From the NCBI RefSeq assembly GCF_036588685.1, contig NC_086373.1:36332001-36396000 (forward strand): a stretch of DNA of 64,000 nt. Reading direction: 5' to 3'. Source of the DNA: Mytilus trossulus. Taxonomy: Eukaryota. Shown piece after piece: positions 3,001 to 64,000 of this stretch; the first letter of the stretch is position 1, and every line of letters begins with the position of its first letter. Made by a program: the position numbers.

Positions 3001-6000
3001 CCCCTTAAAATGCAAATTCAAAAACATTTTAAAACAACCAAAAATAATCTAAACCTGTAATTATACTTAAATTTATAAGTTTTATACTTATAAAATGGTT
3101 CTTTTACATGAACATTTACATTATATATCTACATTCCTGCATCAAATTTTGCAAGCTTGATAGAAAATCTGGACCTTGTGTTCTCTGTTTTTACAATCCT
3201 AGATGGCTAAAGACACCGATACCACTTTAAAGTGCAAGAATGATGATAAACGATCAACATGGAAGACATAATAAAATTAACGGTACCAATTTCCTGCACC
3301 AGATGCGCATTTCGACAATACATGTCTCTTCAGTGATGCTCGTGGCCAAAATATTTGAAATCCAAACCTATAAAAAAGATGAAGAGCTATAATCCAAAAG
3401 GTTCAAAAAGTATAGCCAAATCCGTGAAAGGAATCAGAGCTTTGCATGAGGGAGATACATTCCTTAATTTATAATAATTTCCAATAGTTTGTAACAGCAA
3501 ATTTTAATAACACAAAAAATCCGTATTTTCATGCCAGTACCGAAGTACTGGCTACTGGGCTGGTGATACCCTCGGGGACTAATAGTCCACCAGCAGAGGC
3601 ATCGACCCAGTGGTAGTAATAAAATTAACGGTACCAATTTTCCTGCACCAGATGCGCATTTCGACAATTCATGTCTCTTCAGTGATGCTCGTGGCCAAAA
3701 TATTTGAAATCAAAACCTATATAAAAGATGAAGAGCTATAATCCAAAAGGTTAAACAAGTATAGCCAAATCCGTGAAAGGAATCAGAGCTTGGCATGAGG
3801 GAGATACATTCCTTAATTTATAATAATTTCCAATATTTTGTAACAGCAAATTTTAATAACACAAAAACAAAATCCGTATTTTCATGCCAGTACCGAAGTA
3901 CTGGCTACTGTGCCGGTGAAACCCTCGGGGACTAATAGTCCACCAGCAGAGGCATCTACCTCCTGTGACAAATCATAATTTTGCAAATATTTTTTAAAAT
4001 TTAATACATTTGTAGGAAGGTTTAAATTGTAAACAATACAAATGATTAACAATACAAGATTTATGAAAATACTACTAAATAGTATCAATATGTTTAAAAA
4101 CATAACTGTTTTCAATGAAAAGTAATAAAAAATTAACAAAATGGCAAACTGTTACCAGGTGAGCGATTCAAGCTCAAGAGATCCTTTTTTAAAAGGTTTA
4201 TATTGTGAAATAATCATCAAAATTTACTACTCAACACCAGTTTATTTATTCTTCTTTATGTCACAAACAGAGGCTAATAACACAAAAACTATTTTGGTAA
4301 CATACATGTAGAATAAATAAAAAAAAGTATATCATTTCTTTATTTTTTGTTCTGATAACATTCTTTCCATATCCATTCATTTGAATAATCACAGAAAAAT
4401 TCCATGTAAATGTTTGATTCTCTTTCTATTGGTGTGAACTTGCCATAGAACTGCCAGATCGATAGAACAGCTTCACCAAAGTCGTTACCATACATGAGTG
4501 GACTCTGGGCTGTGACTTTAATTGCACCAGTACAGGAGACATAGTACAGATTTCCATTCTCCCATTTTCGGCATGTTGGTTTACAGAGTCGGCCACATGC
4601 ATCAGATGCAGTGATCATTACTTCTGTTGGTTTATTTGCCGTAGGTTTTTCAACAGCGATGTACCCGATATGAGAGGATATCGGAAGTCTGTTATCAACA
4701 AACACATAATCTGTGTATGTTCCGAAGTAGCTTAATCCAGTAGACTTTAGTCTTACTTTGAATGCACCAGATTCGTCTTCTATACAATCATTATATGTTG
4801 CTGGATTACCTGGTTTAACAACATTTTTCAGACCTTTGTATTTGTGTTCGTCGTACATATCATACCCACTTGGATTTTTTGCGTTAGCGTCAGATTGTGA
4901 TGCAAAGTGAGCCTCTTGAGGTCGCAGATGAACGACTTTAATTGGTATAAATGCCCATTTTCGTACGTCACTTGAACAACCCGCTATGAAGTTATTTTGT
5001 ATAGGTTTACCCATGCATGGTTCACGTTCTTGTGGAAGGTAGATATTTGTTATTTGTTGAGAGTTAACTGTTATTTGATAACTGTGACTGATAGTTGTGT
5101 GGTGTATATGGGTATCTCTTTTCCTCCTGTTACCATGATTGTTACGGAAATTCATCTGGACTCGTCCATTTCTTCTAGCATCAACTAACGGCTGTGTTCT
5201 TGCTCTAAAATTTCGATCTACAGCAGCACATTCTGCTCCGTTGGTTCCCATTCTACATTGCAGATCAGGGGACCCGCAGTAAGTATTCTGTCTCGAACAA
5301 GTAGGCGATAGTTGATAAAAACTTTTTCGTGCTAGTTGAACACCATACCCGTCACGATTTGTTGGAATACGTCCAAGAAATTGCACAACAGGCATGTTCT
5401 TCATCGCAACGTCTGGTAACTGAGCAGGAAGTCCAGTTTTATGAGGATAAGCTGTATTATATTGATGACTGTATCTCCATACTTCCCACAAATAGTCTAT
5501 AAAAGTATGATGTAACCAAAAAATACAATCCCATGGTGCCAATTCGATAGGTCCCATTGATCCACCTATATAATTATGGACATCGTCATGATAAGATTCC
5601 ATGGTGGGATATGGAGATGGTTCGGTCAGACGGTTAATATTTGGCATCCTCATTACATCCCTAACTTCAGCTGACGTGAACAGAGAACCTGCGTTACCAA
5701 CATTTCTGATTACGGCATTACCTCTAACGTCATTAAAGCCTCCGCAAATACCAGTTCGAACAGTTCCACTCATTTCACCAAGATAGTCGGCTGTCCAAAG
5801 TATAGAATTGGCAGGAGTATCCATATTTGCATCAAGACCAGAGTTCCAATATGGCATTGTGACGGAAGGGTCGTAATACTGTAATACCAGTTCTAATCTG
5901 AAACCAATTAGCATATAACATTCAGATATATATGAAATATGCAATGATTCAACAATGTCTTTTGATGATATGGTTGTGTGTTGAATCAGGTTAAACTTTA

Positions 6001-63000: not shown

Positions 63001-64000
63001 ATATTGTATTTAAAGGTTAAATCTATAAAACGATTGATGATTGGATATATCTAATATCAACCAGAGTTATTTAATTTCAATATGAAAAAAACGAGTCTTT
63101 AGCGAGTTAATCCTTAGCATCATAATCTAATAACGAGAACTTTTAACATGATACATTTTGTACTTACTCCACTTTTGTAGGCTTTTGACCATGCTCTTTG
63201 TAATCGGAGTCTTTCTGCACGTGTTAACATTCTAATTTCTTTACGAAAAAGAACACTCCCTGCTTGACGCTTTGTTCGCTTTCCTTTTATTTCATCATGT
63301 AGAAGTTTTCCAAAATAGTTACTTATGTCCGATACAGTTATATTATCGTTTGGATGGTCACATTTTTGCAAGTTTGGTCCTTCCTTCCATAAAAATCTTG
63401 TTATACAATTATTACAGACGGACTCACTGGGCGATTTAGTAACGTCTTGGTATTTACTCTTCATCATCAAACATTCCTTTAAAGATGGCGGCAGTTGTAT
63501 TTCTTCAATTAAACATCTTCCTATACTGACCAAAGACAGCAGAAGCCCAATACGCACACACAGCATGGTAAAACCTGAAAAATATATTGATGTCACATAA
63601 CTGATCTTACTGAAGTTCTCATAATCAGATTTCTAAAACAAAAAGTACACTGTACGAATAGTTCTGTACCAAATGCATTACTTAAATAAAAATAAAAAGA
63701 GCGAAGACAGTCTCGTCCTTATTCTGTCATGCGCTCTCTTCTGACTCTCATCGGAATTAACGTTGATGTAAATGTGTCCTAATTTTAATTCAGACGTTTG
63801 CAGATTTAAACTTTTAGATATTATACAGTTCAAATAAAATCTAGCTTTAGTATTTTCAATTCGCATGCAGCAACTTTTGGAAAAAAATTAGAATAATTTC
63901 AAATTCGCACTTTTCATTTATATTTTAAAATAATTAAAATAATCGGCCACGATAAACATTGAAATATAAATGATAGTTGTATTCTGCTTTATTGGAAGTT

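Follow-up and report, generated by a model that had tools for sequence, protein, structure and literature searches.

Tandem genes for putative secreted tyrosinase-like proproteins in Mytilus trossulus, with candidate convertase sites on both sides of the di-copper core

Described relatives and the four precursors

Byssus, periostracum and shell owe their DOPA (3,4-dihydroxyphenylalanine) and quinone cross-links to mussel and shell tyrosinases. In the haemolymph of bivalves, phenoloxidase activity that is activated by trypsin has been reported. Four paralogous tyrosinase-like genes, here called A to D, lie in tandem in a 64,000-nucleotide stretch of Mytilus trossulus DNA (NCBI RefSeq assembly GCF_036588685.1, contig NC_086373.1, positions 36,332,001 to 36,396,000; 32% G+C, no N), which is referred to as the window. 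Each encodes a putative secreted precursor whose di-copper core stands between two R-X-K/R-R motifs, the consensus of furin and related proprotein convertases. Our best overall explanation, which we hold to be reasonably probable, is that these genes specify tandem secreted tyrosinase-like proproteins that are processed by such convertases.

Close named relatives of the four proteins are Mytilus entries labelled "tyrosinase" or "TYR". Secreted tyrosinases of the molluscan alpha-subclass, or type a, such as the Mytilus Medu-TYRs, Pinctada PfTy and Hyriopsis HcTyr2, have the same PF00264 core, a secretory N-terminus, the same 8-residue spacing between histidines of the first copper site (CuA) and a lineage-specific tandem expansion (PMC3658974, PMC11803259, PMC7045039, PMC11667028). 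Where these reports describe the layout of the proteins, they name a signal peptide and a copper domain, and those descriptions leave unmentioned a pro-region, a C-terminal domain and the two motifs. A spacing of 7 to 9 residues between the first and second CuA histidines is given as the mark of types a to f, the family is credited with 79 members in M. edulis alone, and no protein of types a to e is said to have been experimentally characterised (PMC11803259). For the M. edulis foot, 17 tyrosinases with signal peptides are reported, seven of them detected by mass spectrometry (PMC11667028). We found no account of a molluscan tyrosinase being processed by furin or losing a propeptide in the literature searched, outside which most subscription journals lie.

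Three other systems resemble the mussel precursors in part. Latent polyphenol oxidases (PPOs), such as Agaricus PPO4 (PDB 4oua), share the di-copper core, a linker and a beta-rich C-terminal domain, and proteolysis of the linker has been proposed. However, they are type 2 enzymes from the other deep branch, whereas the mussel proteins are type 1 and have no cysteine near the second CuA histidine for the thioether that is typical of type 2 (PMC11803259). In addition, the C-terminal domain of the mussel proteins is not detectably homologous to that of latent PPOs, and the mussel proteins carry a secretory convertase-type motif and an additional N-terminal pro-region; PDB entries for latent PPOs matched them weakly and over the core only (E ~1e-3). 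Bacterial tyrosinases, from Bacillus/Priestia megaterium and from Streptomyces, provide the closest solved cores. The Streptomyces enzyme is accompanied by an accessory polypeptide, the caddie MelC1, but this is the product of a separate gene, and the bacterial enzymes are without the signal peptide, pro-region and C-terminal domain architecture. A caddie-like role for the mussel pro-region would be speculation by analogy. Finally, the Pif/BMSP shell-matrix precursors are also secreted by molluscs, and a dibasic cut (RMKR) yields two cooperating proteins (PMC11291548), but their domains (VWA, chitin-binding) are unrelated and include no enzyme core.

The four genes of the window all lie on the minus strand and have three exons each:

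4340..15192, minus strand: gene A, exons 15192-14794, 6856-6759 and 5897-4340 (stop included), introns of 7937 and 861 nucleotides, 684 amino acids
38520..44352, minus strand: gene B, exons 44352-43951, 41317-41220 and 40074-38520, 684 amino acids
51212..54822, minus strand: gene C, exons 54822-54424, 53707-53610 and 52763-51212, 682 amino acids
60068..63566, minus strand: gene D, exons 63566-63168, 62459-62362 and 61631-60068, 686 amino acids

The list of open reading frames (ORFs) supplied the four long last exons and the four first exons, and the short middle exon of each gene, which encodes CuA, was located by tblastn with the gene C copy as query. Exons were translated and searched one at a time. 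All eight introns have GT-AG borders, with phases 0 and 2. Exon by exon, the gene models agree at their junctions with P0001, P0002, P0003 and P0005, which are annotated Mytilus proteins, and match them as consecutive residues from end to end. Per-exon identity is 92-100% between gene A and P0001 (M. coruscus TYR), 93-100% between gene B and both P0002 (M. galloprovincialis tyrosinase) and P0003 (M. edulis), and 94-100% between gene D and P0005 (M. galloprovincialis). No match of genes A to D to the named Medu-TYR transcripts was established; one of those named in the source is 686 amino acids long, like D, which is a lead only (PMC11667028).

The PF00264 domain is matched by exon 3 of all four genes (E 7e-13 to 2e-17). 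The N-termini are hydrophobic, with mean Kyte-Doolittle values of 1.9-2.5 over residues 3-16, and small residues precede a conserved cysteine; the secretory routing that a convertase motif calls for is read from this N-terminus, by hydropathy only. The pro-region has an even number of cysteines (6 in A to C, counted from a cut at the small-residue position), and so has the core (6 in A, B and D); this is compatible with separable disulfide units. In P0002 the copper ligands follow the patterns H-x8-H-x8-H at CuA and H-x3-H-x22-H at the second copper site (CuB), and exon 2 of A, B and C shows the CuA pattern as well. These three proteins have all six ligand histidines, three per site. D does not: in its exon 2 (62362-62459) the second and third CuA histidines are replaced by Gln and Tyr. 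A tblastn search for an intact twin of this exon found one CuA exon per gene only. Because the orthologue P0005 has the same replacements, D is probably a paralogue conserved in a non-catalytic or altered state, which hints that some family members work without catalysis. Thus, of the preliminary description of the window, which spoke of four tyrosinases, the domain and the hydrophobic N-termini hold for all four proteins, and the full set of copper ligands for three.

Some copper ligands are also missing from other representatives of the family, for example P0026, P0082, P0113 and P0155.

The CuA exons of A to D contain no cysteine that could form a Cys-His thioether, and in A, B and C the first and second CuA histidines are separated by 8 residues, within the 7-9 range of type a (PMC11803259). 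Judged by these features, A to D are most likely secreted tyrosinase-like proproteins of the molluscan alpha-subclass, or type a, branch.

Basic motifs on either side of the core

Exon translation recovered each of the eight R-X-K/R-R motifs that had been described in the window, with site 2 always followed by Asp-Thr:

14890..14901, minus strand: gene A site 1, RKKR then Q, residues 98-101
5117..5128, minus strand: gene A site 2, RRKR then DT, residues 423-426
44050..44061, minus strand: gene B site 1, RTKR then D
39285..39296, minus strand: gene B site 2, RGKR then DT
54523..54534, minus strand: gene C site 1, RTKR then Q
51977..51988, minus strand: gene C site 2, RGRR then DT
63267..63278, minus strand: gene D site 1, RTKR then Q
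60848..60859, minus strand: gene D site 2, RTKR then DT

Divided at these motifs, the gene A product consists of a pre-pro part (residues 1-101), a core of 325 residues (102-426) and a C-terminal part of 258 residues (427-684), in agreement with the piece sizes first proposed. Site 1 lies about 6 residues ahead of the tyrosinase core. Site 2, which had been placed right after the tyrosinase domain, does follow the core and lies in a hinge, but the Pfam domain ends near residue 308 in P0002 and about 115 more residues precede the motif. These residues include a conserved hairpin with four nearly invariant cysteines, which is structured in the predicted model.

Altogether, nine matches to R-X-[KR]-R are present in the four proteins, against ~1.25 expected from composition (~0.3 per protein), where the four paralogues are not independent of one another. 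The ninth match is an extra one in gene C:

54451..54462, minus strand: RLRR, inside the first core helix (H117-133 in the P0002 model), probably not a cleavage site

The preliminary description held that the sites are kept while the sequence around them diverges, and alignment of the four paralogues bears this out. Only 3/30 columns before site 2 are invariant (mean pairwise identity 0.29), and 5/28 between site 2 and the C-terminal domain (0.42). In comparison, 30/78 columns are invariant in the pro-region (0.62), 88/196 in the core (0.60) and 144/232 in the C-terminal domain, which at a mean pairwise identity of 0.75 is the best-conserved part. The motifs are therefore conserved islands within divergent linkers. 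Site 2 is kept in the four paralogues and their orthologues in the variants RKR, RERR, RGRR, RTKR and RGKR.

The wider family was collected by a HMMER scan with P0002 as query, which at E<=0.001 returned 3638 representatives, 179 of them at E<=1e-30. The best 150 of the 3638 were combined with 14 proteins of an earlier search into a set of 161, of which 154 have the core and 142 have both core and C-terminal domain. Site 1 was assessable where the alignment reaches the core start with >40 residues upstream (n=69), and was sought in a window of 28 residues around the aligned position. Because the representatives are interrelated, shuffle figures are not probabilities; positional controls, which retain this relatedness, point in the same direction.

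Site 1 is present in 54/69 assessable members, compared with 3.9 on average and at most 9 in composition-preserving shuffles. Among distant relatives, at ~30% identity and with six close relatives dropped, it is found in 48/63. Control windows of the same size contain the motif in 1/67 cases just upstream of site 1 and in 0/69 cases at 30 residues downstream. The position is nearly constant, as 56/56 site 1 motifs fall within -9 to +3 residues of aligned Arg101 of P0002. The next residue is Gln in 38/56. When it is N-terminal, Gln can cyclise to pyroglutamate.

Site 2 occurs in 69/142 of the linkers between core and C-terminal domain (median length 109 residues), compared with 13 on average and at most 24 in shuffles, and in 62/135 distant relatives. 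Motif density is 0.56 per 100 residues in the linkers and 0.09 elsewhere in the proteins, and most site 2 motifs lie 0-40 residues before the C-terminal domain. When both sites are assessable (n=61), 30 members carry both motifs, 18 carry site 1 alone, 1 carries site 2 alone and 12 carry none. Site 2 is a subfamily-level feature. The idea of a system cut twice is supported in part: by the conservation of site 1, by the enrichment of site 2 in the hinge and by the location of the motifs in predicted loops (see below), but site 2 is absent from about half of the family. Word-index protein searches, with the C region of P0002 and with an alignment, returned seven already known close relatives and nothing more.

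An N-x-S/T sequon lies ~20 residues before site 1 (for example, residues 75-78) in all four paralogues, as NAT, NTS, NTT and NIT, and 26/69 family members have one in the 28-residue window before the core. Its retention is consistent with passage through the secretory pathway.

Predicted structure places both motifs in flexible, accessible segments. AlphaFold2 was applied to P0002, the M. galloprovincialis orthologue, with a 142-row alignment, and confidence and secondary structure were read from the model. The full-length model has a mean predicted local distance difference test (pLDDT) of 87.8 and a predicted template modelling score (pTM) of 0.87. The pro-region forms three helices (28-40, 48-62 and 79-94; pLDDT ~95), followed by block 91-100, which contains site 1 and has a mean pLDDT of 56. 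In the hinge, blocks 421-430 and 431-440 have mean pLDDT values of 51 and 47, and site 2 (427-430) adjoins a segment (431-439) with pLDDT <50. Low pLDDT is also seen at the start of the gene A C-terminal part when this is modelled alone. Since the whole-chain pTM is high, the model suggests that the three parts pack together.

Maturation and the C-terminal domain

According to the scheme that we favour, the precursor would comprise a signal peptide, a helical, Cys-bearing pro-region of ~80 residues with R-X-K/R-R in a flexible loop, a di-copper core of ~325 residues that ends in the four-Cys hairpin, a basic flexible hinge with R-X-K/R-R and Asp-Thr, and a beta-rich, disulfide-bearing C-terminal domain of ~255 residues. 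Furin-like proprotein convertases of the secretory pathway would cut site 1 and thereby remove the pro-region, in what would be an old, family-wide maturation step, and in the subfamily with site 2 the hinge is probably cut by the same convertases as well. Loss of the pro-region to a convertase is the best reading of site 1, because this site is fixed in position, tends to be followed by Gln, lies in a loop and is deeply conserved, and we consider cleavage there likely. For site 2 the balance tips only slightly towards cleavage. Once the hinge is cut, the C-terminal domain, instead of being a discarded cap, may stay bound through non-covalent contacts or come free as a second working product. 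That either cut controls catalytic activity seems doubtful.

Several observations weigh against this scheme. The pTM of the full-length model suggests a compact body of three parts, and strands (E412-417 and E443-448) flank site 2, so a cut in the hinge need not free the parts. Site 2 is missing from 73/142 linkers, and 12 of the 61 members assessable for both sites lack both. In the M. edulis orthologue P0003, Tyr directly follows site 1, and the RLRR of gene C, within a core helix, demonstrates that R-X-K/R-R can occur where cutting is unlikely. Also, in the main text of the M. edulis foot/byssus proteome report, the terms "cleav", "propeptide", "latent" and "proteoly" have 0 occurrences (PMC11667028).

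The C-terminal domain is encoded in the last exon of each gene:

4343..5116, minus strand: C-terminal part of gene A, 258 residues, beta-rich, 9 Cys
38523..39284, minus strand: C-terminal part of gene B
51215..51976, minus strand: C-terminal part of gene C
60071..60847, minus strand: C-terminal part of gene D

The gene A part, folded alone by AlphaFold2 with 140 rows, gives a beta-rich model with pLDDT 88.3 and pTM 0.83. The preliminary description had likened this part to the C-terminal domain that shields plant and fungal polyphenol oxidases, a likeness for which we detect no relation, nor do we detect one to the shielding domain of hemocyanin. When the window exons were scanned singly, Pfam had no match in the gene A C-terminal part. 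The Pfam scan of the family, which covered 74 of the 142 aligned members, found the shielding domains PF12143, PF14830 and PF18132 in 0/74 at E<=0.01; it found Tyrosinase in 74/74, the chitin-binding domain CBM_14 in 5/74 (best E 2e-05) and no others. Against PDB sequences at E<=10, the C-terminal part alone (phmmer) matched only a glutathione S-transferase (E 0.96, taken as chance), and the C-domain profile matched nothing. Comparison of the fold with the PDB by Foldseek gave no match at E<=0.001, the best being an Ig-like domain of a glycosidase at 0.018, and the ESM Atlas offered only weak Ig-like look-alikes of the C-terminal part (best 0.81, below usable level) and no match for the pro-region. 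A known PPO shielding domain was therefore rejected as the identity of the C-terminal domain, since the Pfam, PDB sequence and profile, and Foldseek searches found none. By these comparisons, the C-terminal domain belongs to no described family, and it and the pro-region are two undescribed conserved modules, new to the tyrosinase family.

Under one alternative, the precursor is a zymogen that is locked twice: the pro-region, the C-terminal domain or both would block the di-copper site, and both cuts would be needed to switch on DOPA/quinone chemistry after sorting. Such a switch is possible, though we regard it as rather improbable. The bracketing of the core by two conserved convertase-type motifs is in its favour, and a whole-chain pTM of 0.87 would imply that both flanking parts dock on the core. 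There are also precedents, as type 2 oxidases are kept latent by a C-terminal domain that is removed by proteolysis (PMC11803259), and the nearest solved cores include the Streptomyces tyrosinase, which was crystallised with its accessory caddie protein. However, when the full-length model was compared with the PDB by Foldseek, solved structures aligned with its core alone (~290 columns), and no two-domain latent form was matched; the top matches were the Priestia/Bacillus megaterium and Streptomyces tyrosinases, with TM-scores of 0.74-0.76 on the target and 27-28% identity. Half of the family is without site 2. The switch is further disfavoured because the C-terminal domain is not detectably related to known shielding domains and is more conserved than the core (0.75 vs 0.60), and because D retains both sites and the C-terminal domain despite a copper site that lacks two CuA histidines.

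An equally live, and equally tentative, alternative is that each precursor yields two products, in the manner of Pif: an enzyme and an independent C-terminal protein, for example a partner that binds matrix or substrate, with site 1 serving ordinary propeptide removal and having no part in regulation. The 144/232 invariant columns of the C-terminal domain, the highest proportion in the precursor, would agree with this, as would its confident folding alone (pLDDT 88.3) and its retention, with both sites, in D despite the crippled CuA. Conservation to this degree suits a working domain better than a cap that is thrown away. Pif itself is a precedent (PMC11291548). CBM_14, in 5/74 members, points to matrix association and hints at a tie between the tyrosinase family and chitinous matrices. 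However, no gene for a stand-alone C-terminal domain was found in the family set, and the predicted fold reveals no binding function.

Stand-alone C-domain proteins had been considered as a separate category and were rejected, as the 7/161 entries that have no core look like last-exon fragments without signal peptides.

A third alternative, to which we give slightly less credence than to either of these, is a scheme peculiar to the large and uncharacterised lophotrochozoan branch of secreted tyrosinases, in which the helical pro-region would come off at the ancient site to leave a Gln, possibly pyroglutamate, N-terminus, and the C-terminal domain would be either a convergent, non-homologous shield or a released second protein. 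Each gene would then specify either a zymogen matured in two steps or a pair of enzyme and partner. Least probable is that the motifs are not convertase sites, but basic patches kept for some other function, such as binding of acidic matrix or polysaccharide, or targets of extracellular trypsin-like enzymes: basic residues are common in the hinge, K and R being numerous near site 2 of A and B, the motif is short and gene C has an extra match, but shuffles that keep composition are far lower (3.9 vs 54 windows, 13 vs 69 linkers), position is fixed within ~12 residues, and the strong bias of the next residue to Gln (38/56) agrees better with a defined cut that creates a new N-terminus than with a charge patch.

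Processing by convertases, our preferred reading, would extend two known kinds of system, namely convertase-processed secreted precursors and proteolytically matured tyrosinases. The original observation of bracketing motifs is confirmed and is strengthened at the level of the family, and its interpretation as an activation switch is partly supported. If the mature enzyme starts after site 1 and ends, or is nicked, at site 2, these positions would give concrete domain boundaries for structural and expression studies. A cut at site 1 would, if it occurs, also account for N-termini that are blocked. For a Pinctada shell protein of 47 kDa, the N-terminus was reported to be modified and could not be sequenced, but the authors could not tie this protein securely to the PfTy clone (PMC4003781), and its membership in the present family is not established.

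Duplication relics and other features of the window

Scans of the window for tRNAs and tandem repeats gave nothing that bears on the tyrosinase precursors. Two short relics of exon 1 lie upstream of genes A and B, and are probably leftovers of tandem duplications:

18123..18203, minus strand: A-like exon-1 relic, 27 amino acids, 85% identical, one in-frame stop, ~3 kb upstream of gene A
45344..45412, minus strand: exon-1 relic of the signal-peptide part, 23 amino acids, 57% identical to B, ~1 kb upstream of gene B

The first of these is the only tyrosinase exon sequence in the 23-kb gap between genes A and B (15193-38519). Tandem duplications also lie in this gap, with a 193-bp unit at 17197-17586, a 199-bp unit at 19459-19829 and 55/112-bp units at 34575-34891.

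Intron 1 of gene A (6857-14793) measures 7937 nucleotides, compared with 708-2633 in genes B to D. It includes ORFs that resemble transposon debris, among them 9405-9638 with a Y-I-D-D-like stretch, which we take to be typical of reverse transcriptases. Other ORFs in this intron are rich in Cys and Phe, one at 8690-8992 and a similar one at 7079-7228 on the plus strand.

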